The position numbers were made by a program, and so were the translations under genes. From the IMG/VR virus record IMGVR_UViG_2579779084_000004, positions 1 to 11,846 of that record: a DNA stretch of 11,846 nt. One strand, written 5' to 3'. The notes beneath the pieces are model-generated. The model was not told where the DNA came from, made no database searches, and saw only the letters and a list, made by a program, of their open reading frames with translations. Positions within the stretch are counted from its first letter, which is position 1. Each line of letters starts with the position of its first letter. Below are positions 1-11,846 of the stretch, in pieces. Origin of the DNA: a virus (Duplodnaviria > Heunggongvirae > Uroviricota > Caudoviricetes).

Positions 1-176
1 GCGGTTTTTGTCAGTTTTTTGGATGCCAGCAACTGATTGAACATATTTCCTGGTTTGCCACCACCTATATACGACCAACGCCCCCACATCCGTAATTTCC
101 CCTGGATCCAGACGGCTTCCAGCGTTTTTAGACGTAAATGCTCGCCGCTTTTGCCTGTAATTTCCGGGTATATCAT
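1..176 (-). CDS. Partial CDS (N-terminal 58 codons, continues past window start): possible late-gene antiterminator Q-like protein
   Basis: ATG at 176 (minus) reads open to position 1: MIYPEITGKSGEHLRLKTLEAVWIQGKLRMWGRWSYIGGGKPGNMFNQLLASKKLTKT. The WG-W motif and the position immediately downstream of rusA fit lambdoid Q genes. No clear SD; assignment from memory of Q N-termini only. Confidence 0.35.
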   Translation of the reverse strand, partial: MIYPEITGKSGEHLRLKTLEAVWIQGKLRMWGRWSYIGGGKPGNMFNQLLASKKLTKT

Positions 177-184
177 ATTTACGA

Positions 185-550
185 TCACTCACTCTCAATT
201 TTGTAAATCTTCACGCCCAGCCGCCCCCCAGGAACGAGCTGACCGCGCACAATATTGATTTCATCAAACTGCTCGTCGTCTATGAGAAGTCCGGCATGCG
301 TCAGCGCATCCAGTGGTGCTTTCAGGATATTGTCCAGGTCACGACGACGTTTATCCGGTGGCTCTGCAATAATCTTTATCGCCAGCCTTCCGGACAGGTT
401 TAATTTCAGCCGCTGCTGGCGAACAATAAGCGCCACATCACGGCGATAACGCTCACCGGCTTTTGATACAAAATATGTGCTGCCACGACGTCGCCAGTAA
501 GTGTTCACCGTTGGCGGGTAAGGCAAAACAAATTCTATGCGTTCAGTCAT
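185..550 (-). CDS. rusA: RusA-family Holliday junction resolvase (crossover junction endodeoxyribonuclease)
   Basis: 121-aa ORF with ATG start; contains the DKRRRDLDN motif and overall resemblance to E. coli RusA. Its ATG directly abuts the upstream stop (TGAATG), typical nin-region context. Confidence 0.88.
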   Translation of the reverse strand: MTERIEFVLPYPPTVNTYWRRRGSTYFVSKAGERYRRDVALIVRQQRLKLNLSGRLAIKIIAEPPDKRRRDLDNILKAPLDALTHAGLLIDDEQFDEINIVRGQLVPGGRLGVKIYKIESE

Positions 551-1609
551 TCATGCTTTCCACTTCAGGACACCCGAATTTCTCGCGTGCATTAAAAAAC
601 GAATCAGCAACAACAGCTGGCTGCCGTGTTTTTCTTCAAAATCTTTTACCCCGGCGTGTAGTTCGCTATGGCATTTACGGCACAGCGGAATAACAAACAA
701 ATCATCAGCCTTTGTTCCCATCCCTCCCAGTCCATGACCCATGATATGATGCGGATCATCTGCCTGATTGCCACACGTCATGCATTTCTGCGTTTTTACC
801 CAACGCGTGTATACAGGCATCTCTTCCCGTTGTGGTTTCTGGCGCTGGAGATACTGAGCCGGTGACTCCGGATCAACGGCAATGCTGACCACCGTCTTTT
901 CCTGTGGTGGATTCTGTTGCTGGTGGGCGTGAGGCAACGGCGCAATATTTTTTGTGCGCTGCTTCAGTATGCTGATGGCGGTCTGCTCTCCCGGTACGAT
1001 GTCGCTCTCGCGGTATACTGAGCGGATTTTTTCACCCGGAAGCTTCAGGATTCGACGCGCCATATTTTCGGTCATGGCATCCACTACATCATTTACAGAA
1101 GCCCAGCAGCACAATTCAGCCAGCGATAATTCCCGCTCCTGCGTGCCATTCACTGCATGGCGTATGACGTCAATCATCCATGCTGACAGGTTTTGATGAG
1201 CAAGTTGCCCGAGTGATTCGGAGGTCTGGTCACGCAGCTGGTTGTCGCAGTGCCAGCACAACACCATTGCGCCGATACCATAACGATGTATGACGGTTTC
1301 GCTGTGATGATAATCGCCGTGTGGCCACTGGCAGGATTTAACGTGGCGTAACAGCCAGTCAGACAGCGCACCAGCACCGCCAGCAGCACGAATCACCCGC
1401 TCATCGCTGAAAAATGGCAGTAGTGATTTATCCTCCGCCAATGGCTGGCGAACGGCAGGAACGACTCCGGACGGCAGACCGCGCATGCTTTTCGGTTCCG
1501 GCTCCACCAGTACACGACCGCTGCGGAATACCTGCATGGATTCACGACCAGGCTTAAGGACCACCAGCCCAAGTTCCGGTACCGGAACAGATCGAAGTAA
1601 TACCCGCAC
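551..1609 (-). CDS. DUF968-like phage protein with Cys/His-rich (HNH/zinc-finger-like) segment
   Basis: 352-aa ORF with GTG start at 1609 preceded by GGAGG at 4-5 nt spacing. Contains CMTCGN...HHIMGHG...CRKCHSELH; sits immediately upstream of rusA as DUF968 genes do in E. coli prophages. Confidence 0.65.
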   Translation of the reverse strand: MRVLLRSVPVPELGLVVLKPGRESMQVFRSGRVLVEPEPKSMRGLPSGVVPAVRQPLAEDKSLLPFFSDERVIRAAGGAGALSDWLLRHVKSCQWPHGDYHHSETVIHRYGIGAMVLCWHCDNQLRDQTSESLGQLAHQNLSAWMIDVIRHAVNGTQERELSLAELCCWASVNDVVDAMTENMARRILKLPGEKIRSVYRESDIVPGEQTAISILKQRTKNIAPLPHAHQQQNPPQEKTVVSIAVDPESPAQYLQRQKPQREEMPVYTRWVKTQKCMTCGNQADDPHHIMGHGLGGMGTKADDLFVIPLCRKCHSELHAGVKDFEEKHGSQLLLLIRFLMHARNSGVLKWKA

Positions 1610-1610
1610 G

Positions 1611-1883
1611 TTACCTCCAGAACCGTTGCTGGAATGTGCGGGACGGACGCGGTGGGCGTTCGGAATAAGGGAGTCTGACGTAGATTATCCAGTGACGATA
1701 ATCGAGGCTGAGGGCTTTCTTAATCTCGTATCCGTGTCTGCGGTAGCGCTGAATCAGCCATTCGGCCTGTTCTTCAGTACATGGTGGGTGTTGGTACCAG
1801 TCGGTTTTAAATGCGTGTGAACGCCGCCCATGCCGGATGGCAAGGGCGGTATCAGAATTGTGAAATTTGGTTTTGTGCGCCAT
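1611..1883 (-). CDS. Hypothetical phage nin-region protein (90 aa)
   Basis: ATG at 1883 (MAHKTKFHNSD...), downstream of a terminator hairpin; stop sits 1 nt before the DUF968 GTG. The track's longer GTG start at 2042 would place the terminator inside the gene. No strong SD. Confidence 0.4.
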   Translation of the reverse strand: MAHKTKFHNSDTALAIRHGRRSHAFKTDWYQHPPCTEEQAEWLIQRYRRHGYEIKKALSLDYRHWIIYVRLPYSERPPRPSRTFQQRFWR

Positions 1884-1952
1884 CGGTTGTCTCTGCTGGC
1901 GCAGCAGGTGCCAGTTGTTCAGGCTGGCGTGCGAATTGTAAACCAGAATGCC

Positions 1953-1983
1953 AGGAAAAAACAAAACCCGCCGAAGCGGGTTA
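1953..1983 (-). terminator. Rho-independent terminator (probable 3' end of the hok mRNA)
   Basis: Plus-strand aacccgc-cgaa-gcgggtt (1965-1982) is a 7-bp stem with tetraloop; on the minus strand it is followed by TTTGTTTTTTCC. Lies about 70 nt downstream of the hok stop. Confidence 0.55.
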
Positions 1984-2050
1984 AGTGCGGGTGCGTTGAG
2001 GATGCCTGACTCATCAGAGGTGGCGAGGGATTTCTCCCTCACCTGGTCTC

Positions 2051-2206
2051 TTACTCCTCAGGTTCGTAAGCTGTGAAGACAGCGACCTCCGTCTGGCCGG
2101 TTCGGATTCGTACCTCGCAGAGGTCTTTCCTCGTTACCAGTGCCGTCACTATGACGGTTAAACAGATGACGATCAGGGCGATTAACATCGCCTTTTGCTG
2201 CTTCAT
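2051..2206 (-). CDS. hok: Hok/Gef-family type I toxin (51 aa, HokD/RelF-like membrane peptide)
   Basis: ATG at 2206 gives MKQQKAMLIALIVICLTVIVTALVTRKDLCEVRIRTGQTEVAVFTAYEPEE, which I recognise as Hok family: single TM helix plus the conserved C-terminal TGQTEVAVF motif. Confidence 0.85.
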   Translation of the reverse strand: MKQQKAMLIALIVICLTVIVTALVTRKDLCEVRIRTGQTEVAVFTAYEPEE

Positions 2207-2263
2207 AGCCTGCTTCCCCTTGCCTTTCGGCACGTAAGAGGCTAACCTACATTTGTGAGACAT
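2051..2263 (-). CDS. mok: Mok-like in-frame leader reading frame (70 aa) overlapping hok
   Basis: ATG at 2263 with GAGG 8 nt upstream; the N-terminal extension MSHKCRLASYVPKGKGKQA- is in frame with hok, as in chromosomal mokC/hokC. Confidence 0.45.
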   Translation of the reverse strand: MSHKCRLASYVPKGKGKQAMKQQKAMLIALIVICLTVIVTALVTRKDLCEVRIRTGQTEVAVFTAYEPEE

Positions 2264-2330
2264 AGATTGGGCCTCAGATTAATGTTAAGCGTCTTGCAGG
2301 ACGCGTAATGTTAACTGGGGCTTTTCTCTA
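2230..2330 (+). ncRNA. sok: Sok-like antisense RNA region (boundaries approximate)
   Basis: Inferred from hok/sok architecture: antisense to the hok leader and mok initiation region. A plus-strand TTGCCT...TAACCT promoter-like pair lies near 2219-2247. No clean terminator identified, so ends are uncertain. Confidence 0.3.
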
Positions 2331-2375
2331 TCTGCCTTTTGGTGTTCATGCCTGAGACAGATAGCCTCAAGCACC

Positions 2376-2420
2376 CGCAGTTATTCTACTTAACTAAGAT
2401 TTCCCCGCAAACCGTTTTTG
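2376..2420 (-). promoter_or_regulatory. Probable hok mRNA promoter and 5' end
   Basis: Minus strand reads TTGCGG-16 nt-TAGAAT (-10 at 2383-2388). The predicted transcript start GGGUGCUUGAGGCUAUCUG... resembles the 5' end of R1 hok mRNA as I recall it. Confidence 0.35.
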
Positions 2421-2465
2421 TCCGGCACAGTAAATATCCAACTAAACCAATGGCGTTCGCTGTAT

Positions 2466-2645
2466 TTACCGCCAGTATTCAATGCACATGACCGCCATGA
2501 ACACCCCTAAAAAAAGGGCATTTATATGTCCAAACATTAATATCAAAACATCAATTTTTTCCATATACCTTGCTGTGAAGATGATGGGCATACATGATGC
2601 GAACAACCAGAACGCAACAAACAAAAACTGCAATGCGTTTTTCAT
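2466..2645 (-). CDS. Putative small hydrophobic membrane protein (59 aa) in AT-rich island
   Basis: ATG at 2645 preceded by GGGGG with 4-nt spacing; MKNALQFLFVAFWLFASCMPIIFTARYMEKIDVLILMFGHINALFLGVFMAVMCIEYWR has two hydrophobic stretches. AT-rich codon usage; no homolog recognised. Confidence 0.3.
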   Translation of the reverse strand: MKNALQFLFVAFWLFASCMPIIFTARYMEKIDVLILMFGHINALFLGVFMAVMCIEYWR

Positions 2646-2765
2646 TATTCCCCCTACAATCAATGTGCAATAACATTTAAACACACCTCAATTTGGCCGG
2701 ACATATAAATATCTAAACCAGAAAAAATCACTTACATAGCGTTACAAACTCTTTAGTCTAAATAT

Positions 2766-3281
2766 TCATCGTAAAACATCCTCCACGCTTATCAGTCCAT
2801 TTGGTTTCAGGTAATCCATCGCCTTCTCCGGTAATTTGCAGTCCGGCTGAGCTTTTTTCAGTTGACTGACCAGTCGTTTAACCCACATTGTTAATTCGCT
2901 AACCTGATTGCCGGATGCTGGTGGATTGTCGGCTTTACCCAGAATGGCAGCGCAGCAGGCCTCTCTGAGCACCCAGTCAACAGCATCCTTCCATGCTCCT
3001 GTTTCGACTGGCGGATTCTCACGCTTTACCTGTTCATAAAAGCGCACGGCTTTAACCAGTCCTTCTGATGTCACCGGGACTGGCGGGCCGATGAATAAGG
3101 CCTGAATTTCATAGTTCGGCCTGTCGTTACAATCCTCTTTTGTCGGTACATATTTCCAGTCACCAGCCCACGGCTTCCCCTGAAAGTCTGTAACGTCTTT
3201 TTTCACGTAGCGATATCGCCATGCAACTGGTTTTGCCTGCCCTGCCGTTTCATGCCCTTCCTGATAATTAATCTCGCTCAT
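2766..3281 (-). CDS. Hypothetical phage protein (171 aa)
   Basis: ATG at 3281 overlaps the upstream stop (ATGA); long ORF with normal composition. No family recognised. Confidence 0.55.
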   Translation of the reverse strand: MSEINYQEGHETAGQAKPVAWRYRYVKKDVTDFQGKPWAGDWKYVPTKEDCNDRPNYEIQALFIGPPVPVTSEGLVKAVRFYEQVKRENPPVETGAWKDAVDWVLREACCAAILGKADNPPASGNQVSELTMWVKRLVSQLKKAQPDCKLPEKAMDYLKPNGLISVEDVLR

Positions 3282-3454
3282 TCATCGCCCCACTCATCAC
3301 AATATGCTTCGATCGGAGTTTTTCCTGCTTCATAATCATCACGCCATGCTTCAGCATCAGCAGCACTGCCACCACGTAACTCTGCATAGTCCATTAACAG
3401 TTCATGCCATTCTTCAAAACTGACGTTGTATTTAGTTGAACCAAAATCAGCCAT
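3278..3454 (-). CDS. Small acidic protein (58 aa), absent from the ORF track (below length cutoff)
   Basis: Hand translation from ATG 3454: MADFGSTKYNVSFEEWHELLMDYAELRGGSAADAEAWRDDYEAGKTPIEAYCDEWGDE. GAGGAAG SD lies upstream; start overlaps the upstream stop (ATGGCTGA) and the stop overlaps the next ATG (ATGA). Confidence 0.45.
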   Translation of the reverse strand: MADFGSTKYNVSFEEWHELLMDYAELRGGSAADAEAWRDDYEAGKTPIEAYCDEWGDE

Positions 3455-3629
3455 TTTGTTCTTCCTCTTCGTCTTTTATTTCGTGATATGAGTAATTGCA
3501 GTAGTTAAAGAAAATATCTTTTGCTTCGTCATGTATTTCATCAGGCGTCGCATCATCATCCACTTCGAATTCATCCTCGAAATCTCCACCGGCTATTCCC
3601 GTTTCAATAATTATTTTAAACTTTCGCAT
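3447..3629 (-). CDS. Small highly acidic protein (60 aa; about 20 Asp/Glu against 5 Lys/Arg)
   Basis: ATG at 3629; AGGAGG SD at 3653-3658 is separated from the ATG by a 16-nt GAAA-tetraloop hairpin. Sequence MRKFKIIIETGIAGGDFEDEFEVDDDATPDEIHDEAKDIFFNYCNYSYHEIKDEEEEQNG. Confidence 0.5.
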   Translation of the reverse strand: MRKFKIIIETGIAGGDFEDEFEVDDDATPDEIHDEAKDIFFNYCNYSYHEIKDEEEEQNG

Positions 3630-3636
3630 TTAACTA

Positions 3637-3652
3637 CCGCCCTTTCGGGCGG
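3637..3652 (-). promoter_or_regulatory. Stable hairpin (CCGCCC-GAAA-GGGCGG) between SD and start codon: split ribosome binding site
   Basis: Perfect 6-bp GC stem with GNRA-type loop on the mRNA strand, flanked 5' by AGGAGG and 3' by 7 nt then ATG. Confidence 0.5.
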
Positions 3653-3722
3653 CCTCCTGATGTTCTGAGGGTGCAGAAATCCCTCCGGTTAAGGATTAAA
3701 TTTTTAACAGAGCTAAATTTAA

Positions 3723-4079
3723 TTATTCAGTTCTGGATTTTGTCGCCCTGCGTATCCGCGCTTTCGCGTTACGCTCAATCTGAATTAGCTTTTCTATATT
3801 TTTTCGCCTTTCCCGCTCCTCCTGACGCAAGAGCCTTACATCATCTGCCAGTCTGGTTTCTCTTTTCGCCACAGAGAGCATCCAGTCAAATGGCTCCACA
3901 ACTGCACCGCATATTTTACAGCGGACCTGACGCTCTTTTTCGTCAACCCGGACAGAGGCGTGATGACAATATGGTCTTTCCGATGGCTCATAAAGAAAAT
4001 TAACCTGATTACGAGGGTCATCCTCTTTTACCGGAAATAAAACGATATTGCTTAACTCATCCTCTGGTTTTATTTCCAT
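3723..4079 (-). CDS. Hypothetical protein (118 aa) with Cys/His cluster and basic coiled-coil-like C-terminus
   Basis: ATG at 4079 with GGAGAGGAG upstream; YCHH...CKICG cluster and a C-terminal Arg/Lys/Glu-rich segment. Overlaps the upstream gene by 23 bp. Confidence 0.55.
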   Translation of the reverse strand: MEIKPEDELSNIVLFPVKEDDPRNQVNFLYEPSERPYCHHASVRVDEKERQVRCKICGAVVEPFDWMLSVAKRETRLADDVRLLRQEERERRKNIEKLIQIERNAKARIRRATKSRTE

Positions 4080-4518
4080 GCTCCTCTCCTTTGATGCGAA
4101 TGCCAGCGACGCGTAATGCGTGTTCTAAGTCAATCAGGTAAAGCCAACTGCCATTTTCTTTAGGTATCATGACATGTCGCTCATCTGCATTTATCGGGTG
4201 TCCATATCGAAGGTCGTAGCGAGTCGGTAATTGAACTTCCCGCGCTTCCAGTTCAGCAATACGCTTGCTCCCATCAGAGATAACGCCTTCGTAATACTCA
4301 CGCTGCTCGTTGAGTTGTGATTTTGCTTCTTCCAGTCCATCCAGCAAATCAGCGATAATATCCGCTTCCCGATGACGGATGTGACGCTTAAACGCAGCAA
4401 GAGCCGCATCACAATCCCGTTCAGCATTTGGGCTGTCCGGGATAGCCTGATACCACGCCAGCGTCGACTGATAGTTTTGTGCTGCCTCACGAAGCGCCTC
4501 ATAGTTAACCTCTCTCAT
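4057..4518 (-). CDS. Hypothetical phage early protein (153 aa)
   Basis: ATG at 4518 preceded by AGGAGGTGG; ATGA overlap with the upstream gene. No family recognised with confidence. Confidence 0.55.
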   Translation of the reverse strand: MREVNYEALREAAQNYQSTLAWYQAIPDSPNAERDCDAALAAFKRHIRHREADIIADLLDGLEEAKSQLNEQREYYEGVISDGSKRIAELEAREVQLPTRYDLRYGHPINADERHVMIPKENGSWLYLIDLEHALRVAGIRIKGEEHGNKTRG

Positions 4519-4811
4519 TGAGCCACCTCCTGATAAATCACCGCATGCCCCAGTTTCTCCGCCAGTGCCAGCTCTGCCTTAGCGCCCGCTGACCGCTGCC
4601 AGCCTTTCAGCATGTAAATCGCATCCACACAACGAATCATTGCCATGCAAATATCCATGTAGTGCGGCTGTGTCAGCCCGTCCGGAAGTACTGCCGGGTT
4701 CAAGACTGTATGCCCTTCCCGTTTCAGTTCCTCTTCCGCCTTGTGGAACGCCTCACGGTTGAAATTTTTATACCCGGTCATTGGACCGGCAATATAAACT
4801 CTCACCCTCAC
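4515..4811 (-). CDS. DUF4406-like protein (nucleoside 2-deoxyribosyltransferase-like fold), 98 aa
   Basis: GTG start at 4811 (GTGA overlap with upstream stop); N-terminal YIAGPMTG...NF..F...AEE.L...GH.V.NPA pattern recalled for DUF4406 proteins. Confidence 0.55.
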   Translation of the reverse strand: MRVRVYIAGPMTGYKNFNREAFHKAEEELKREGHTVLNPAVLPDGLTQPHYMDICMAMIRCVDAIYMLKGWQRSAGAKAELALAEKLGHAVIYQEVAQ

Positions 4812-5125
4812 TCCTGAACTCTCCTGTCGAAATAAACGTAGTTATTCACTGTGCGCAACGGCATTCCAAATTTTCTGGCGATTTCTCTCCTGGGTACGCC
4901 ACGCTGATGCAGCTGTCGCGCCAGTTCAATATCACTCTGCGGATATTTTGTTGACTGGTGATAATCACCCCGTAACATCAGGCTGACACCCAGTTCCCGC
5001 GCTTTCGTTCTGACAGCATCACCTGTACGACCGGTCAGCCTCCCAATGCTTTCGACCGTCATCGTTCCCGCACACTGCCGGAGTATCATGATTTCAGCCT
5101 CGTACCACTTCTTCCAGCCACTCAC
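4808..5125 (-). CDS. Small helix-turn-helix DNA-binding protein (105 aa)
   Basis: GTG start at 5125 (GTGA overlap) with GGAGAG upstream; HTH-like segments [21 protein letters not shown] and [19 protein letters not shown]. Confidence 0.5.
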
Positions 5126-5883
5126 CGCTGCAGCTCTCCGGTCGCGGTAATATCACGAAGAATATCCCGGTGCTTGTTCAGCTCCCGCAGCGCGGCGCAG
5201 ACTCGTTCCCACTTCTGGACATGACTTTTCGCCCGACGCAGTTCGAGGTTTGCCATATGCAGCGATGGTAAAATCAGGTCATCCGCTCGCGTTTCAGTAA
5301 ACGATGGCAGCGACTGCACAATGCCCGCTACAGTTTCTGTTTTAATTTCTTCCTGTGTTGCGGCTTCCCGGACTGGTAACGCAACACCTGCTGGCTGAGG
5401 AAAGGCCTTACCATCATTTTCCGTTACCGATGCTGCTTTCGGCTCTGCTGGTAAATTACCGCCCGGCATGCAGTAACGAAATTTACCGCTCTGATTAACG
5501 CGTGCCAGCCGCCCCGTTGCAGTTACCACCGCCAGCGTGGAAGCAACCTTGCGAGTACTGATGCCGAACTTACCCGCCAGTTCCTCACACGTTTTAGCCC
5601 CATCCTGACCGATAAACTCAATCATCATGTCTGCTGTAACTTTTTGTTCGACCTCCCCGGTCAGCATATCCTGTGCTTCAGATTTTACTGGCCGCTCTTC
5701 GGTTACCAGGGATTCACTTTCGCCAGCCAGAAACCAGGTGTGACCAGTTTTATCAACGACGCCATTTCTTTTGAGTTCCCACAGCTCGTTGAGAACCTCT
5801 TCACGACTGATATCAAGTCGCGCGGCCAGTTCTACCGATGTGGCTTTTCCCATTGCTTTCAGTGCGTCAAAAACGGTTTCCAT
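5122..5883 (-). CDS. Phage protein with tandem winged-helix-like segments (253 aa; DUF977/DUF1627-like, occupying the Rac ydaW position)
   Basis: ATG at 5883 with GGAGGAAA SD 5 nt upstream; two HTH-like segments ([27 protein letters not shown] and [23 protein letters not shown]). Family name uncertain. Confidence 0.6.
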
Positions 5884-5904
5884 TAAAATTTCCTCCGGAC
5901 AAAA

Positions 5905-6651
5905 TTACTTCACAACCCTCAGGTGTCTGACATTCGAACGCCAGCTCTCCCAGTTAAAATTCACCCAGCGACCACCGTTCATGACCATGCGGTCCATCAC
6001 ACGCTCGCCAAGAAGCGTACTCATCGCTACGTGGTTCAGGTTCGTCAGCATTCCGACACTACGCATCGAAGCCGTTCTGCGGTCGACTATCTGGTTCAGT
6101 GTGACCTGCTCGTTGCGCGTATCCCGCTGCATTCCGATTTCATCCAGGACAAGCAGGTCAACATCACACAACCCCTGTAAAAATTTTTCGCCTGAGTTTT
6201 TGTTGTCGTAGCTGTTGTGTAACGCCAGCATCACATCAGCCACCGTTATCACAATCACGCTGCGACCTTTCGCCAGAAGATGATTGCCAATGGCGGCTGC
6301 AAGGTGGTTCTTTCCGGTACCCGGCTTACCGCTGAACACAAAATTCGTGCACCCGGTCATCAGTTCGTCAGCGATGGATTTTGCCTGGCTCAGCGCATGT
6401 TTTTGCCCGTCGTTCTGCACCTGATAATTCGCAAACGAGCATTTGCTGTGCAGAGGCTGGATGCCCGAACGATTCAGGATTTTTTCCACCCGCAACTGGC
6501 GATTCTGGCGGTTGATCTCCTCGCTACGTTTTCGCCCTTCTGCCAGTTGCCACTCGCGCCACTCGTCCACTGTCCGGTACGGCGCGATTACATGCTGCGG
6601 GGTCAGCTTACGGATACGCTCAAGAACACCACCTGTCGCGATATTTTTCAT
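5905..6651 (-). CDS. DnaC-like replicative helicase loader (AAA+ ATPase; Rac YdaV-like)
   Basis: 248-aa ORF with Walker A GKPGTGKNHLA and Walker B LLVLDEIG; resembles DnaC/IstB-type loaders and sits immediately downstream of the initiator gene. Confidence 0.88.
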   Translation of the reverse strand: MKNIATGGVLERIRKLTPQHVIAPYRTVDEWREWQLAEGRKRSEEINRQNRQLRVEKILNRSGIQPLHSKCSFANYQVQNDGQKHALSQAKSIADELMTGCTNFVFSGKPGTGKNHLAAAIGNHLLAKGRSVIVITVADVMLALHNSYDNKNSGEKFLQGLCDVDLLVLDEIGMQRDTRNEQVTLNQIVDRRTASMRSVGMLTNLNHVAMSTLLGERVMDRMVMNGGRWVNFNWESWRSNVRHLRVVK

Positions 6652-6657
6652 GGCCCG

Positions 6658-7623
6658 TTACCCCCTGAACCCCGGCGGAATTTCGGTATCCGGCTCAGAA
6701 ATATGATTCACGCAACGCTGTACAGACGAACGCCCCAGGCGGATAACCAGTTCATCCCATTTTTCGCGAAGCTTTGACGGACTCATGATATTTTTTACCC
6801 AGAATGGATCCCGCTGCGCCCGACCAAACATTTCACAAATTTGTCTGTGAGTTCTGCCATCCAGCATCCGCATTGTGCGCACGTCGTTGGCCCATGCGGT
6901 CCAGTTGGGTTCTTTCGGTCGCGAAATCTCGCCATCATCGCTGGCGGCCTGCTCGTAAAGACTCACGATTCGTCCCCAGATCCACTGCGCACACGCCAAA
7001 TCTTCCTGGTTGCCCCACTGGCGTTTTTTTGCACTGAACACAACCGCGTCAGGGTGTCGGGTTAAAAAATCCTGTTCAACCGTCTGCGGGTCCGGTTGCG
7101 AAGCTTCCGGACGAGAAGTGTTTTTATTCTCTGTAGTAATCTCTGTTGTATTCTCTGTAAGATCATCAGGCCATTTTGACCCGATGACATTGAGTCGTTT
7201 TGAACCAATGGAACGTGCCATTTTGGCCCCTTCCATCGTGTCATTCTGACCTGATGGAGCAGCGCATTTTGACCTGATGGATTCGCTCACTTTGCCACCA
7301 TTTAAAAGCTCGCTCTCGTAATTAATCGTGTAAAAATTAGTCATATCACGCTTTGATTTATTGAGCTTTTCGCAACGCAAAAGCCCCAGCGTTTTCAGAC
7401 TTGCAAATGCGCGTTTTAACGTTGACTCTGACCAGAACGGGAACTGCTCCAGCCATTGTTCTGTTGTGTTATAAATCCAGCGAACACCATCACATTCCAT
7501 GCCGGAACCGGTATCTCTCAACCAGTAATGCAACTGCTGCAACACGATGGCTTCGTTCAGACCAATTTTCATCGCCAGCTGCGTGTTTATAACCAGCGGA
7601 CGTTCAGCAAAAAGGAGCTTCAT
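6658..7623 (-). CDS. Replication initiation protein (lambda O-like replisome organizer), 321 aa
   Basis: ATG at 7623 (MKLLFAERPLVINTQLAMKIGLNEAIVLQQLHYWL, typical phage replisome-organizer N-terminus). The central low-complexity region is encoded by DNA iterons; the C-terminal domain precedes the DnaC-like gene. Confidence 0.78.
   Translation of the reverse strand: MKLLFAERPLVINTQLAMKIGLNEAIVLQQLHYWLRDTGSGMECDGVRWIYNTTEQWLEQFPFWSESTLKRAFASLKTLGLLRCEKLNKSKRDMTNFYTINYESELLNGGKVSESIRSKCAAPSGQNDTMEGAKMARSIGSKRLNVIGSKWPDDLTENTTEITTENKNTSRPEASQPDPQTVEQDFLTRHPDAVVFSAKKRQWGNQEDLACAQWIWGRIVSLYEQAASDDGEISRPKEPNWTAWANDVRTMRMLDGRTHRQICEMFGRAQRDPFWVKNIMSPSKLREKWDELVIRLGRSSVQRCVNHISEPDTEIPPGFRG
7172..7375. 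repeat. Probable origin of replication: five ~23-bp-spaced iterons plus adjacent AT-rich segment, inside the initiator gene
   Basis: Direct repeats of consensus CATTTTGACC(Y)GATGGA starting at 7172, 7196, 7219, 7242 and 7265, followed by an AT-rich stretch around 7300-7375. Confidence 0.6.
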
Positions 7624-7643
7624 CCCCCCCCCAGAACACGTTA

Positions 7644-8069
7644 TCAATGCGCCACCACGGCATTTCCCGCCGGACCACCACGATTCATCTGATCGAACAA
7701 CACGATCGCTGCCGCAACAAACTCATCGATATCTTTCACCAGGCGCTCCCGTCGCTCGACAAGCTCCCGGTGATATTCCGAACTGTGGCTGCGCATTCGG
7801 GCCACCAGTGGAGGCGGCATTGCTTTTTCGATCGCCGGTAACAACGCCTGAATTTTTTTAACCGCATCAGGGGTGTCTTTTTCTACCCAGCGGAAAATTT
7901 TCTGGGTATTACGAGACAGGGCTTCCGGATGGCTGTCGTCATACAGTTCAGGAAACGTCATCCCCAGTTCGAAATAAGTCCGGGCTATTTCAGCTGCAGG
8001 AACTTTCTCACCATCAGGGTATGCCCAGGCATTCATCGCCATGCGGATGTGCTCATGTTTGATTTTCAT
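7644..8069 (-). CDS. ydaT: YdaT-like protein (CII-like regulator of Rac-type prophages)
   Basis: 141-aa ORF beginning MKIKHEHI, which I recall as the Rac YdaT N-terminus; immediately downstream of the Cro-like gene. Confidence 0.75.
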   Translation of the reverse strand: MKIKHEHIRMAMNAWAYPDGEKVPAAEIARTYFELGMTFPELYDDSHPEALSRNTQKIFRWVEKDTPDAVKKIQALLPAIEKAMPPPLVARMRSHSSEYHRELVERRERLVKDIDEFVAAAIVLFDQMNRGGPAGNAVVAH

Positions 8070-8376
8070 GAATCATTTGCCTCTTGATGCTTCGGGTATG
8101 ATCGTTTTCGTCATTTGGTTGCTTCATCGACATATTCTGCGAATAACATGACGAGCGTCGTAAGTATGTCCAATCAACATCAGGACGAAGTTCTTCACAC
8201 AGGACACCACCTTTTGTTGCTCGTTCAATCGCAGGACATCTCTCAGCAGGTAACTGACGTACACCTTTGATCCATTGATTTACGCTTGGAGGAGATACAC
8301 CTAAAAGCCTAGCCATTGCTGATTGCCCACCGACAACAGCACAAGCTCGTTTGAATGAATAGTTATCTTTTTTCAT
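8053..8376 (-). CDS. ydaS: YdaS-like Cro-type HTH repressor
   Basis: ATG at 8376 with GGAG 8 nt upstream; MKKDNYSFKRACAVVGGQSAMARLLGVSPPSVNQWIKGVRQLPAERCPAIERATKG closely resembles Rac YdaS. Divergent from the CI-like gene. Confidence 0.8.
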   Translation of the reverse strand: MKKDNYSFKRACAVVGGQSAMARLLGVSPPSVNQWIKGVRQLPAERCPAIERATKGGVLCEELRPDVDWTYLRRSSCYSQNMSMKQPNDENDHTRSIKRQMIHENQT

Positions 8377-8403
8377 CGAATGAACTCCAAAAAACACGCA
8401 ACA

Positions 8404-8474
8404 ATATTAGGCTTAGCCTAATGAAATTGTCAATAGGCTAAGCCTAATACATCGGGAGTAGGGATTGCCTAACG
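8404..8474. promoter_or_regulatory. Divergent immunity control region: three 17-bp palindromic operators (TTAGGC-N3-GCCTAA) overlapping a PR-like promoter for ydaS and the racR promoter
   Basis: Operators at 8406-8422 (perfect palindrome ATTAGGCTTAGCCTAAT), 8432-8448 and 8458-8474 (one mismatch). Minus-strand promoter: -35 TTGACA (8428-8433), 18-bp spacer, -10 TAATAT (8404-8409). Confidence 0.6.
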
Positions 8475-8500
8475 CGATGCGCATAGGAGACTATTAAGCA

Positions 8501-8977
8501 ATGCTTAGTGGTAAAGACTTAGGCCGAGCGATAGAGCAGGCCATTAACAAAAAAATTGCATCAGGAGCCGTCAAATCAAAGGCGGAAATCGCACGTCATT
8601 TCAAAGTCCAACCACCATCAATCCATGACTGGATTAAGAAAGGTTCGATAAGTAAAGACAAACTTCCAGAACTATGGCGTTTCTTTTCTGATGTGGTTGG
8701 TCCAGAGCATTGGGGGCTTAACGAATACCCCATACCAACCCCATCCACTTCAGATACAAAAAGTGAACTTTTAGACATAAACAGCCTTTATCAAGCCGCC
8801 TCTGATGAAAAAAGAGCAATTGTGGCTTTCATCTTATCTGGAAATGCTACGGAGCCTAGTTGGGTTGATCATGACGTTCGCGCCTACATTGCCGCAATGG
8901 AAATGAAGGTAGCTAACTATCTGAAAAATCAAGAATCAAAACGGAAAAGCCAGAACATCACCAAGACAGGAACTTAA
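8501..8977 (+). CDS. racR: RacR-like prophage repressor (CI-like, 158 aa)
   Basis: MLSGKDLGRAIEQAINKKIASGAVKSKAEIARHFKVQPPSIHDWIKKGSISKDKLPELW... matches Rac RacR as I recall it; N-terminal HTH; AGGAG SD upstream; divergent from the Cro-like gene. Confidence 0.82.
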   Translation: MLSGKDLGRAIEQAINKKIASGAVKSKAEIARHFKVQPPSIHDWIKKGSISKDKLPELWRFFSDVVGPEHWGLNEYPIPTPSTSDTKSELLDINSLYQAASDEKRAIVAFILSGNATEPSWVDHDVRAYIAAMEMKVANYLKNQESKRKSQNITKTGT

Positions 8978-9070
8978 ACTTATATGGTCCGACGGGAAAT
9001 TCCTAGTTCCCGTTAGTTAACTCCTACTACCTCTTCCACAAACCATCACCTATTAGGTTGCGCCCAAATT

Positions 9071-9114
9071 ATTAGGCATAGCCTATTGACAAGTAATTAG
9101 GCATTTCCTATAGT
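9071..9114 (+). promoter_or_regulatory. PL-like early promoter with overlapping operators
   Basis: -35 TTGACA (9086-9091), 17-bp spacer, -10 TATAGT (9109-9114). Operator ATTAGGCATAGCCTATT (9071-9087) overlaps the -35; a second copy (9095-9111) overlaps the spacer/-10; a degenerate third lies near 9051-9067. Confidence 0.65.
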
Positions 9115-9295
9115 TTTCCCATACCAACCCATCCCGTCCCACACAATACAGGGCAATACCTCGAGTTACCAGGCAGTGGTCAGGGGTTAAGTAGCCAGCC
9201 CGAGGCGTAAGAACATGACGGCAGGGTTCAACTTTAATAACTATGCAGCAGGTTTTTGTTCCGCTACCCCGGCGTTAAGGGGAAATGAGGTCAAC

Positions 9296-9451
9296 ATGGA
9301 TACTATCGATCTTGGCAACAACGAATCTCTGGTATGTGGCGTGTTCCCCAACCAGGACGGTACGTTCACCGCGATGACGTATACCAAAAGCAAAACGTTT
9401 AAAACCGAAAATGGTGCCCGTCGCTGGCTGGAAAGAAACTCAGGTGAGTGA
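9296..9451 (+). CDS. ydfA: Small protein, YdfA/YdaF-like (DUF1391-type, 51 aa)
   Basis: ATG at 9296 with GAGG 6 nt upstream; MDTIDLGNNESLVCGVFPNQDGTFTAMTYTKSKTFKTENGARRWLERNSGE. First gene after the PL-like promoter, as in the Qin dicB operon. An in-frame ATG at 9215 would give a 78-aa alternative. Confidence 0.6.
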   Translation: MDTIDLGNNESLVCGVFPNQDGTFTAMTYTKSKTFKTENGARRWLERNSGE

Positions 9452-9452
9452 T

Positions 9453-9581
9453 ATGGATTTCGACACAATCATGGAAAAGGCTTACGAAGAATACTTCGAA
9501 GGCCTTGCCAAAGGCGAAGAAGCTCTCAGCTTCAGTGAGTTTATACAGGCGCTTTCCAGCTCGGCAAAATCTAACGGCTGA
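9453..9581 (+). CDS. ydfB: Small protein, YdfB/YdaG-like (42 aa), absent from the ORF track
   Basis: Hand translation from ATG 9453: MDFDTIMEKAYEEYFEGLAKGEEALSFSEFIQALSSSAKSNG; AGGTGA SD 5 nt upstream; starts 1 nt after the preceding stop. Confidence 0.55.
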   Translation: MDFDTIMEKAYEEYFEGLAKGEEALSFSEFIQALSSSAKSNG

Positions 9582-9610
9582 TAAGCGAAGCAGCACCGCG
9601 AGGAATCAGT

Positions 9611-9850
9611 ATGCAGAAACGAGAACCCGTCATCATCGCGCCAGACTATACCGATGATGAACTTTATGAGTGGATGCACCAGAAAATTAAGGCTGCGCAG
9701 GACCTGAAATGGGCCAATGAAGCCAGGGCTAAGCAAGCTGAAAATCTGTCCGCTCTGGAGCAGGATATCACCAATCTGGAAAAAGCAGCGGCATTAAGCA
9801 TTGCCAAGAATGATTACATACCCACGTTAATGGCTAACCAACGAGGCTAA
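9611..9850 (+). CDS. Small protein, YdfC-like (79 aa)
   Basis: ATG at 9611 with GAGGAA SD 5 nt upstream; coiled-coil-like AKQAENLSALEQDITNLEKAAA. Position matches ydfC in the Qin dicB operon; length differs from what I recall, so no symbol assigned. Confidence 0.55.
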   Translation: MQKREPVIIAPDYTDDELYEWMHQKIKAAQDLKWANEARAKQAENLSALEQDITNLEKAAALSIAKNDYIPTLMANQRG

Positions 9851-9852
9851 TA

Positions 9853-10260
9853 ATGGAATTTAAAGATTTACCAAAAGAAATCCAGATAATTGCTGCAACG
9901 ACACTCGGTGATAGTCTGCTGAAAATTGACCCGGCATACACCAAAAAAGAAACCATCGATAATATGGTTCGTAATGTGCGCAATGCTTTTTCAGGGCTAT
10001 ATGGTTCTGATAATCAAAAACAGGAAAACGATATTGATGAACGGGTAATTTCTGTTTGCCTGAATGGTCATGTTATTTCAGCAATCAGAACAGAAACGGC
10101 AACTGCTTTTGATTATCTCTGCATGATTCAGAGTCTTGCTGATGTTCTGTTGAAATCAAAAGATTTAGAAAACGATGCAAATTTACAGGGGCGCACAATA
10201 GCACATCCATATGCACATACTTTAGGCTCTGTGGATATCAAAGATCCCACAAATCTTTAA
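9853..10260 (+). CDS. Hypothetical protein (135 aa), AT-rich, no recognised family
   Basis: ATG at 9853 sits 2 nt after the ydfC-like stop with GAGG 6 nt upstream, so it is co-transcribed with the early operon. Composition is markedly more AT-rich than flanking genes. Confidence 0.55.
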   Translation: MEFKDLPKEIQIIAATTLGDSLLKIDPAYTKKETIDNMVRNVRNAFSGLYGSDNQKQENDIDERVISVCLNGHVISAIRTETATAFDYLCMIQSLADVLLKSKDLENDANLQGRTIAHPYAHTLGSVDIKDPTNL

Positions 10261-10471
10261 TGAAATAGTTAACGCGAATTGTACTTGCTCTTTCAGTTGC
10301 TTTCAGAATACGCGTTGAAACTGCTGGCGGTAATTTAGTATTCCATTTATTAAAATCATGCCCGGAAAAGTACTCTTCGAAAATACTTTTAACTGCAGAC
10401 TCGCCTATTGAAATGCTGCTTACCATGCGATTTTGATAAAGGCATTTAGCAATAAGAGTTGATTTTAACAT
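10238..10471 (-). CDS. Hypothetical protein (77 aa), convergent with and overlapping the 3' end of the 135-aa gene
   Basis: ATG at 10471 preceded by AGGAGGG at 4-nt spacing; AT-rich; 23-bp 3' overlap with the plus-strand gene. No family recognised. Confidence 0.45.
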   Translation of the reverse strand: MLKSTLIAKCLYQNRMVSSISIGESAVKSIFEEYFSGHDFNKWNTKLPPAVSTRILKATERASTIRVNYFIKDLWDL

Positions 10472-10794
10472 TCACCCTCCTGAGGGTTGGTAATTAAGGA
10501 GTTCTCCACGGGTGAGGTGGAGTGCGTGCGCCGGACACGGGTGAGCATCCGGCACTGACAGTTTACTGAAAGGATATATCCCTGAAAAGTCAGGGCATAA
10601 CACGAAAGCGTACGGCGAAGGCCTTCACCTATGAGGCTTGTCGTTAAATTTAATTCGACCGTACGCTTCCGGTTGTGGCAATCCGCGAAATGGCGCGGCG
10701 GTAAGTATGGCAGGGGTACTATTCTCCCTCCCCTGTGGAGCACCGGGTTGTCAGGTTGACCATACGCTTAAGTGACAACTCCGCTGCAACAACC

Positions 10795-10857
10795 CATGCT
10801 GATTACCTTTTGGCGGGTATCCGTTTTTTGTTTTCCCTTGTGATACCCGCCCTTTTT
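10795..10857 (+). ncRNA. dicF: DicF-like small RNA (divergent variant) with intrinsic terminator
   Basis: UUUGGCGGGUAUC...GAUACCCGCCCUUUUU forms a 10-bp stem (10812-10821 with 10842-10851) plus U5 tail, resembling the K-12 DicF 3' region as I recall it. Lies about 180 nt upstream of dicB, as in Qin. Confidence 0.5.
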
Positions 10858-11040
10858 AAAGTGAATTTTGTGATGCGGTGAATGCGGCTCAGCGCACGCG
10901 GAACAGTTAAAAAGGCCAGTTGACTTCCGTATTGGTTCTTATGGGTGGGTTCTCTGTATCCGGCGTTAATTGTTAACTGGTTAACGTCACCTGGAGGCAC
11001 CAGGCGCCGCATCACAAAATTCATTGTTGAGGACGCGATA

Positions 11041-11229
11041 ATGGAAACGTTATTACCAAACGTCAATACGTCTGAAGGTTGTTTTGAAATTGGTGTCAGA
11101 ATCAGTAACCCTGTATTTACTGAAGATGCCATTAATAAGAGAAAATACGAACGGGAGCTATTAAATAAAATATGCATTCTTTCAATGCTGGCCCGTTTAC
11201 GCCCGATGCAAAAAGGATACTGGCAATGA
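11041..11229 (+). CDS. dicB: DicB cell-division inhibitor (62 aa)
   Basis: ATG at 11041 with GAGGA SD; METLLPNVNTSEGCFEIGVRISNPVFTEDAINKRKYERELLNKICILSMLARLRPMQKGYWQ is near-identical to K-12 DicB as I recall it. Confidence 0.85.
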   Translation: METLLPNVNTSEGCFEIGVRISNPVFTEDAINKRKYERELLNKICILSMLARLRPMQKGYWQ

Positions 11230-11429
11230 ATACTGCTATTGCCCTCACTCTGACTGTTTTTCTTAATACTGGCGAGCCTGTTGACATGGTTATTAACATT
11301 TACGGTTCAATGAAAGAATGCATAGCTGCCGCAGCAGAACAAAAAATTCCCGGTAACTGCTATCCGGTCGATAAAGTTATTCACATGGATAATAACGAAA
11401 TCCCGGCAGGACTTAAAACAGCGCCGTAA
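11226..11429 (+). CDS. ydfD: YdfD-like small protein (67 aa; hydrophobic N-terminus), translationally coupled to dicB
   Basis: ATG at 11226 overlaps the dicB stop (ATGA); MNTAIALTLTVFLNTGEPVDMVINIYGSMKECIAAAAEQKIPGNCYPVDKVIHMDNNEIPAGLKTAP; position as ydfD in Qin. Confidence 0.55.
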   Translation: MNTAIALTLTVFLNTGEPVDMVINIYGSMKECIAAAAEQKIPGNCYPVDKVIHMDNNEIPAGLKTAP

Positions 11430-11508
11430 TTAATATCCGGTTTCATTTTATATGCCAGCAATGGCAGGGATTTGTTCACCCTTAAATCTGTAATGAGGTT
11501 AAAACAAC

Positions 11509-11846
11509 ATGAGTAAAGTCTTTATTTGCGCCGCTATTCCGGACGAACAGGCAATAAAGGAAGAAGGTGCAGTCGCTGTAGCCACTGCCATTGAAGCTGG
11601 CGACGAACGCCGCGCCCGTGCCAAATTTACCTGGCAATTCCTGGAGCAATATCCGGCTGCTCAGGACTGCGCTTATAAATTTCTTGTTTGCGAGGATAAA
11701 CCCGGTATACCCCGCCCTGCCCTCGATTCCTGGGATGCTGAATATATGCAGGAAAACCGCTGGGATGAGGAGTCAGCTTCCTTTGTCCCGGTTGAGACTG
11801 AATCAGATCCGATGAACGTCACTTTTGACAAGCTGGCCCCTGAAGT
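11509..11846 (+). CDS. Partial CDS (N-terminal 112 codons, runs off window end): probable RecE-like exodeoxyribonuclease VIII
   Basis: ATG at 11509 with GAGG upstream; open to the window end (MSKVFICAAIPDEQAIKEEGAVAVATAIEAGDERRARAKF...). The N-terminus resembles prophage exonuclease VIII annotations as I recall them, and the position matches recE in Rac. Confidence 0.45.
   Translation, partial: MSKVFICAAIPDEQAIKEEGAVAVATAIEAGDERRARAKFTWQFLEQYPAAQDCAYKFLVCEDKPGIPRPALDSWDAEYMQENRWDEESASFVPVETESDPMNVTFDKLAPE

Follow-up and report, generated by a model that had tools for sequence, protein, structure and literature searches.

Is the AT-rich DNA that accompanies a hok locus in a lambdoid Escherichia coli prophage mere spacer, or does it hold a gene of its own, and if so, does that gene belong to the toxin–antitoxin system? 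We addressed this question in the 11,846-nucleotide (nt) viral record IMGVR_UViG_2579779084_000004 of IMG/VR (positions 1 to 11,846; hereafter, the window), which is part of such a prophage with its genes on the minus strand. The hok locus (2410–1955), the AT-rich segment upstream of it and a 59-amino-acid (aa) open reading frame (ORF) within that segment all lie on the minus strand, to which coordinates refer unless marked otherwise, and the gene for the antisense RNA Sok lies on the plus strand. Taking all parts together, we regard it as likely that these two adjacent minus-strand units, a complete, canonical hok/mok/sok locus and a genuine gene for the 59-aa protein, together make up a single old module within the nin-equivalent region. 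The hok/sok part is already known and ordinary, because RefSeq annotates its coding sequence (CDS) as hokD and a close homologue, hokW–sokW, has been studied experimentally. The ORF itself is very probably a genuine, overlooked small membrane-protein gene, and its constant association with hok is the one mildly novel point.

The ORF (2466–2645; ATG at 2645–2643 and TAA at 2468–2466) is preceded by a Shine–Dalgarno (SD) sequence, GGGGG (2654–2650), and a 4-nt spacer, AATA (together 2646–2654). Its predicted product has a GRAVY (grand average of hydropathy) of 1.20, and an AlphaFold2 single-sequence model gave two helices, predicted to be transmembrane, at residues 2–24 and 28–58 (mean predicted local distance difference test score, 80.5). 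An exhaustive HMMER search against 1.84 billion proteins found a second lineage (lineage B, that of the window being lineage A), which is also 59 aa long, aligns without gaps at 44% identity and has two predicted hydrophobic helices. The two lineages share 20 invariant columns, including S17-C18-x-P20-I-I-x-T24, F38-G39, N42-A-L and E56-x-W-R, and their identity at the three codon positions was 58, 71 and 49%, with a pN of 0.33 compared with a pS of 0.71 (Fisher p = 2e-4 for nonsynonymous versus synonymous). The 59-aa frame is the only one that is open in both lineages. When the same 72 nucleotide differences were placed at random, the ORF was open in only 2% of trials and the BLOSUM score was 64 ± 17.5, compared with 160 observed, a value that none of the 20,000 trials reached. 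In the alignment of lineages A and B, the ORF scored z = 12.5 and its flanks scored z = 2.3 and 4.3, near the shuffled baseline; the gapped identity of the flanks (0.75, above that of the ORF) was discarded as evidence, as it equals that baseline. These sequence comparisons make it very probable that the ORF is a real protein-coding gene for a membrane protein.

The two lineages differ in their surroundings. Lineage A is carried by the AT-rich segment, which is present in 1569 of 5426 complete E. coli genomes (~29%), always at ≥95% identity. In a sample of 113 copies anchored outside the ORF, the frame was intact in 112, and the SD was GGGGG in 58, GGAGG in 53 and a longer G-run in 2. Lineage B occurs once per chromosome, in 1045 E. 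coli genomes (~19% of those that are complete; for example, P0042 and ABU 83972), was intact in all nine copies sampled and has an SD, AGGGA, at the aligned position. It also lies directly upstream of a hok sequence, separated from it by a homologous spacer, although the hok promoter, the leader and the first 22 codons have been deleted and what follows is a piece of hok that is 80% identical to nt 69–134 of the gene. The whole is a decayed remnant in which the integrase, DUF1627, hok and metal-transporter genes are all fragments. In ABU 83972 and other B2-type strains, this ~2-kb prophage remnant sits between ttcA and uspF, the Rac attachment region, and contains fragments of an integrase gene, of DUF1627 and of hok, a metal ABC permease gene with a frameshift, and the lineage-B ORF, which is its sole intact reading frame. 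The family consists of these two lineages and is restricted to E. coli and Shigella: a word-index protein search returned only E. coli and Shigella copies (≥75% identity), and a scan of one genome per species gave only Shigella and E. coli, apart from two chance planctomycete matches. A literature search with the 59-aa peptide sequence returned no papers.

Other identities were considered for the ORF and for overlapping frames. The ORF does not qualify as a type I toxin: the peptide is hydrophobic but has two helices instead of the usual one, and neither an antisense promoter/terminator pair nor an RNA-family match was found over 2420–2765. Nor does it qualify as a class II holin or pinholin, which would have two transmembrane domains and a charged C-terminal tail and be encoded in the lysis cassette; two helices are present, but the C terminus here is only EYWR, the holin and endolysin genes are >4 kb away, past the Q-like gene, and there was no PHROG or Pfam holin match. 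A 63-aa antisense ORF (2482–2673, plus strand), called 'hornerin' or hypothetical in some phage records, was rejected because it contains two stops in lineage B. A 72-aa form extended to a GTG was rejected as the conserved product, given that in lineage B a TAA interrupts this frame six codons ahead of the ATG.

Downstream of the ORF, the initial annotation had described a complete-looking hok locus with a promoter, a leader like that of R1, an in-frame mok, hok and a terminator, and this reading is supported; tac, ucb, dcb, fbi and Sok could be placed as well (element definitions and mechanism follow PMC9841398). The putative hok promoter (2383–2410) comprises a −35 box TTGCGG (2410–2405), a 16-nt spacer and a −10 box TAGAAT (2388–2383), with +1 at G2376, which is also where the Rfam match begins and which agrees with the alignment to 933W and R1-type loci. 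From this start and from the terminator at 1982–1965 with its T-run, the full-length hok (mok_hok) mRNA would span 1957–2376 (~417 nt). Its 5′ end is formed by tac (GGGUGCUUGAGG; 2365–2376), which is followed by ucb (upstream complementary box; AAGCCCC, 2317–2323), with which tac pairs in the consensus structure of Rfam and in the alignment fold. A single hairpin (2238–2275), the Sok target region, then holds the mok SD GAGG (2275–2272), the mok AUG (2263–2261) and dcb GCCUC (2242–2238). The mok leader ORF (70 codons; 2051–2263) is in frame with hok and shares its stop, as annotated for mokW of 933W; the hok SD region AAGGGGAAG (2221–2213) precedes the toxin CDS (51 aa; 2051–2206; RefSeq hokD WP_000813254.1). 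Beyond the CDS lie a stem–loop in the 3′ untranslated region (UTR), GGUGAGGGAGAAAUCCCUCGCCACC (2019–2043), seen in both full-length and truncated folds and, by analogy to R1 (PMC9841398), probably the protective 3′ hairpin of the processed mRNA; the fold-back inhibitory element fbi, CCUCAACGCACCC (1989–2001), which is kept in K-12 hokD; and an intrinsic terminator, AACCCGCTTCGGCGGGTT followed by TTGTTTTTTC (1955–1982), the stem of which (1982–1965) together with its T-run is the only terminator-like site that the scan found in 1850–2900. On the plus strand, the putative Sok promoter (2220–2248) consists of a −35 box TTGCCT (2220–2225), a 17-nt spacer and a −10 box TAACCT (2243–2248), aligns with the R1-type locus and would drive an antisense RNA of ~70 nt (2255–2326), to which the sokW annotation of 933W maps at 2255–2325. 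The hexamer TAACCT (complement TAGGTTAG) appears to be the one that Takada et al. replaced to make sokW promoter-less, as read from their primers. Scores for the locus were high: the Rfam sok model RF01794 matched 2376–2201 with 120.1 bits (gathering score, 59; E = 1.6e-27), and Hok matched Pfam HOK_GEF PF01848 with 81.6 bits (cut-off, 22; E = 3e-23) and PHROG 251, 'MokW-like host killing', at 7.7e-33. The locus has the sequence and structural features by which hok/sok systems are recognized—a Hok/Gef-family ORF of ~50 aa, a mok frame with its own SD that overlaps the hok start, a predicted antisense Sok, tac–fbi pairing, and the alternative tac–ucb and mok SD–dcb pairings. A sub-threshold Rfam match to isrK, an Hfq-binding small RNA of Salmonella prophages, covers the hok 3′ UTR and terminator (2042–1961; 24 bits compared with a gathering score of 50; E = 0.008), and a plus-strand ORF over the terminator (1830–2009), labelled 'hypothetical' or 'mobile element protein' in some records, looks spurious.

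The predicted RNA structures agree with these assignments. The full-length hok RNA (2376–1960) folded at −169.3 kcal/mol (z = −6.86), with tac (2376–2365) paired to fbi (2001–1989) in both the minimum-energy and the centroid folds; after removal of the 3′ 44 nt, the 5′ end refolded in the single-sequence prediction and tac paired with the sequence immediately 3′ of it. The mok SD/AUG/dcb hairpin (−12.1 kcal/mol, z = −3.4) was kept in six divergent alleles, and Sok folded (−31.1 kcal/mol, z = −4.6) into a long hairpin that is preceded by a single-stranded 5′ tail over the mok initiation region and followed by a U-rich tail. The mok-start/Sok-target hairpin (2275–2238) is also the most variable part of the locus, with at least six alleles that all refold alike (−12 to −13.5 kcal/mol, mok SD paired to dcb), which suggests diversified Sok specificity among the 2–11 hok copies per genome. 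The commonest allele carries a net −1 frame change, through which mok ends at the hok ATG and is not in frame with hok.

By analogy to R1 hok/sok and to hokW–sokW of Sp5, the hok mRNA would be made constitutively and held inert by tac–fbi pairing of its ends. Slow 3′ trimming would remove fbi, the 5′ end would refold through tac–ucb pairing and the mok SD/AUG hairpin would become accessible. Sok, short and unstable, would bind the mok region and the duplex would be destroyed; otherwise, mok would be translated, and its translation would couple to that of Hok, which would damage the inner membrane. Cells would lose viability once Sok synthesis stops, whether through loss of the element, transcription shut-off or prophage induction, and in the last case lysis and phage release may be faster, as shown for HokW. 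The 59-aa gene, with its conserved SD, is predicted to yield an inner-membrane protein folded as a helical hairpin. Neither a promoter nor a terminator could be detected for the ORF; we infer that read-through from the early rightward operon reaches it, chiefly in lytic growth, and that the transcripts continue into hok.

Several observations weigh against parts of this account. For the ORF, the Prokaryotic Genome Annotation Pipeline (PGAP) and RefSeq never annotate it in either lineage (GenBank and UniProt submitters call it 'hypothetical protein' or 'membrane protein'); profile searches of Pfam, PHROG, NCBIfam, PADLOC and the PDB found nothing; a Foldseek search of the model against BFVD gave only matches of E > 2 to generic two-helix proteins; and the scan of 1850–2900 detected no promoter or terminator of its own. 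In addition, all 11 sites that are polymorphic within lineages (nine in A, two in B) are nonsynonymous and none is synonymous, and recent purifying selection is therefore not evident. The corresponding population test in lineage A (nine nonsynonymous to zero synonymous) gave P values of 0.08–0.16, which are uninformative or mildly against constraint, and evidence from within lineage A is weak because diversity is very low, such that intactness at ≥95% identity proves little. All this would suit a frame that is open by chance, in AT-rich DNA that acts as spacer or regulator and is carried along with the hok promoter, yet such a frame would have had to keep exactly 59 codons with start and stop, an SD in both lineages and a protein score far beyond that of randomised differences, while its flanks decayed almost to the shuffled baseline and the antisense ORF was broken in lineage B; we consider this improbable. 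The hok locus raises doubts of its own. The strict consensus promoter scan of 1850–2900 called nothing, the hok and Sok promoters included, and because these are weak consensus matches their assignment rests on homology to R1-type and 933W loci. The truncated RNA, folded as a single sequence, gave a local 'metastable' tac hairpin rather than the tac–ucb stem that both the covariance-model alignment of Rfam and a consensus fold from eight leader alleles (prophage rows only) display. The leader allele of the window is rare (1 of ~94 sampled copies), its hok SD reads GGGG (2219–2216), compared with GGAG in nearly all of the others sampled, and this GGGG pairs with the CCCC of ucb in the predicted full-length fold, which could over-sequester it. 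Since hok loci are often inactivated, as by truncation in K-12 hokD or by the insertion at the hok ATG described below, the window copy might be silent or decayed, like the chromosomal hok loci of K-12, however complete it looks. There is little to recommend this over a functional locus, given that all defining elements are intact with scores far over threshold, the hok frame, disruption of which the initial annotation had named as grounds for doubt, is unbroken with a CDS 100% identical in DNA to K-12 hokD, loci identical or 99.9% identical to that of the window are present in several clinical isolates, and GGGG is still able to pair with the anti-SD.

If the gene and the locus are both real, do they work together? 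Linkage to hok in lineage A is essentially absolute: the hok leader lies directly downstream in 80 of 80 ORF-anchored viral loci, and the contiguous junction of ORF, spacer and hok leader was found in 1557 complete genomes, compared with 1552 with the segment. With lineage B, at 44% identity, also directly upstream of a hok remnant, no terminator between ORF and hok, and both products predicted to be inner-membrane peptides, one could picture a three-gene functional unit in which the protein modulates Hok at the inner membrane (as immunity, timing or helper factor) or in which the ORF transcript modulates hok mRNA folding by read-through. However, ~84% of hok leader copies have no 59-aa ORF (~9900 places compared with ~1600), which argues against an obligatory partnership, and both R1 hok/sok and hokW–sokW work without it (PMC8621323, PMC9841398). 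The converse also occurs: an insertion sequence (IS) resembling IS481 (446-aa transposase with helix–turn–helix (HTH) and rve domains) sits exactly at the hok start codon (window 2204–2207), with an identical junction, in 25 of 94 anchor-sampled copies (27%) and in phage PhiR42_1, leaving the ORF intact and the hok CDS gone, as the ORF is also intact beside the hok fragment in lineage B. The insertion looks like one ancestral inactivation event that is now widespread. Tight linkage over 60 bp can be explained by simple hitch-hiking, and we favour hitch-hiking or a shared expression context as its cause. A functional unit of ORF and Hok is thus unlikely, as is an obligatory coupling of the protein to Hok; because most hok leaders have no ORF and the ORF stays intact where hok is destroyed, we lean towards an accessory membrane factor that acts independently of Hok, provided that the gene is real. 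Less likely again is the specific proposal that some prophage hok/sok loci have in this protein a third, hitherto unrecognised component, which tunes Hok at the inner membrane or, through a read-through transcript, hok mRNA folding on induction; if true, it would have been kept beside hok in two anciently diverged lineages for that reason and might, for example, set lysis timing or protect the lysogen. A system thought to consist of toxin and RNA only would gain a protein partner, should the protein affect killing by Hok, the timing of lysis or phage exclusion. Even without such an effect, the independent gene that we prefer would be a candidate for the lengthening list of small membrane proteins that have been overlooked, here in pathogenic E. 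coli (ST131, ATCC 25922) and Shigella.

The segment that carries the ORF is AT-rich, and the initial annotation was right about this flank, about the two helices predicted from the ORF and about the G-rich SD. The G+C fraction (GC) is 0.35–0.40 in 200-nt windows across 2400–2900; by part, it is 0.32 in the spacer between the stop of the upstream gene (2768–2766) and the ORF SD (IG1; 2655–2765), 0.38 in the ORF and 0.46 in the spacer that leads from the ORF stop to the hok promoter (IG2; 2411–2465), compared with 0.48 for the whole window, in which 3300–3700 and 9800–10500 are equally AT-rich. IG1 contained no promoter-like or terminator-like site in the scan and hardly aligns with its lineage-B counterpart (z = 2.3); IG2 contained no terminator in the scan and had a fold z of 0.1. 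Related phages, which the initial annotation suggested checking, differ in this respect: Evi, HannyBb, mEp460, Tritos and 933W lack the segment upstream of hok, 640R1, 813R8 and PhiR42_1 have it, and phages such as Evi have other cargo in its place. Presence or absence among related phages together with atypical base composition (GC 0.32–0.38 compared with 0.48) is what a moron would display. This label would suit hok, which has a terminator and a putative promoter of its own, and suits the ORF less, as neither was detected for it. The segment is not a recent independent insertion; the ORF has long accompanied hok, lying upstream of it in two lineages that have diverged to 44% aa identity. The edges of the module are sharp, at 1957–1963, where the boundary in other prophages coincides with the end of the hok terminator, and at 2846, 2912 or 2931. 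These upstream recombination boundaries fall within the last 80–165 nt of the preceding gene (2766–3281), the C-terminal tail of which is common to several otherwise different PHROGs (660, 924, 8171 and 30109) and looks like a conserved linker for mosaic exchange.

The wider gene order was taken from a RefSeq chromosome that is 99.9% identical to the window. It starts with an HTH repressor-like gene, a transcriptional regulator, a YdaT-family gene and two replication genes, continues through a string of small genes without assigned function to the hok/ORF region, and then runs through rem-like, DUF968/ydfU, rusA and Q-region genes to transfer RNA (tRNA) and lysis genes. The hok region therefore lies between replication and late-control genes, in a nin-equivalent region, and the placement in the nin region given in the initial annotation agrees with its position between the replication genes and the ydfU/rusA/Q-like genes. 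The immunity region, in which a YdaT-family 'toxin' gene and a small regulator gene (7644–8397) are divergent from the HTH repressor-like gene (8501–8977, plus strand), has a layout of the Rac/ydaS–ydaT type. A query with 1900–2800 found some match in 4957 of the 5426 complete E. coli genomes, at a median of two places per genome, the matching part being that of hok in most of the 4957.

How, then, does the window locus compare with known hok systems? In R1 hok/mok/sok (parB), the elements stand in the same order—promoter, tac, ucb, mok SD/AUG hairpin, dcb, hok SD, hok, 3′ stem–loop, fbi and terminator, with an antisense Sok that has its own promoter (definitions in PMC9841398). R1 differs in being a plasmid element rather than part of a prophage, in having mok out of frame with hok (by our reading of an R1-type sequence) and in the sequences of tac and fbi, the mutual complementarity of which is kept. 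R1 Hok is 44% identical to HokW (PMC8621323).

Much closer is hokW–mokW–sokW of 933W and Sakai prophage 5, with ~92% DNA identity over 1979–2419, 47 of 51 Hok residues identical, mok in frame with hok, the same Sok position and −10 box TAACCT, and the same 5′ leader and fbi. The 933W locus lies near the end of the genome instead of in a nin-equivalent region, carries other sequence past fbi without the terminator of the window and has no 59-aa ORF upstream of hokW. HokW is toxic and counteracted by sokW, and hokW doubles Sp5 phage release after mitomycin C (PMC8621323). Aiding lysis and phage release on induction is the only demonstrated role for this closest prophage homologue, which leaves the stabilisation or abortive-infection role put forward in the initial annotation without a counterpart there.

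The relation to K-12 is of another kind. The hokD gene of the Qin prophage (relF of the relBEF operon) has a CDS that is 100% identical in DNA to that of the window, a nearly identical 3′ UTR, fbi and terminator, and the same downstream neighbours (rem, ydfU and a Q-like gene). However, the homology begins only at the hok SD (~2223), upstream of which relB–relE replace the promoter, tac, ucb, the mok start and the entire Sok gene. In the window, no relB or relE ORF precedes hok and the full regulatory leader is present, so that it is a stand-alone hok locus, as initially proposed, rather than one of the Qin type. Because K-12 homology runs only from the hok SD onwards, the window holds the regulatory form in full, whereas K-12 hokD is a truncated version of it, and the window offers a clean example of the complete, ancestor-like state of that locus.

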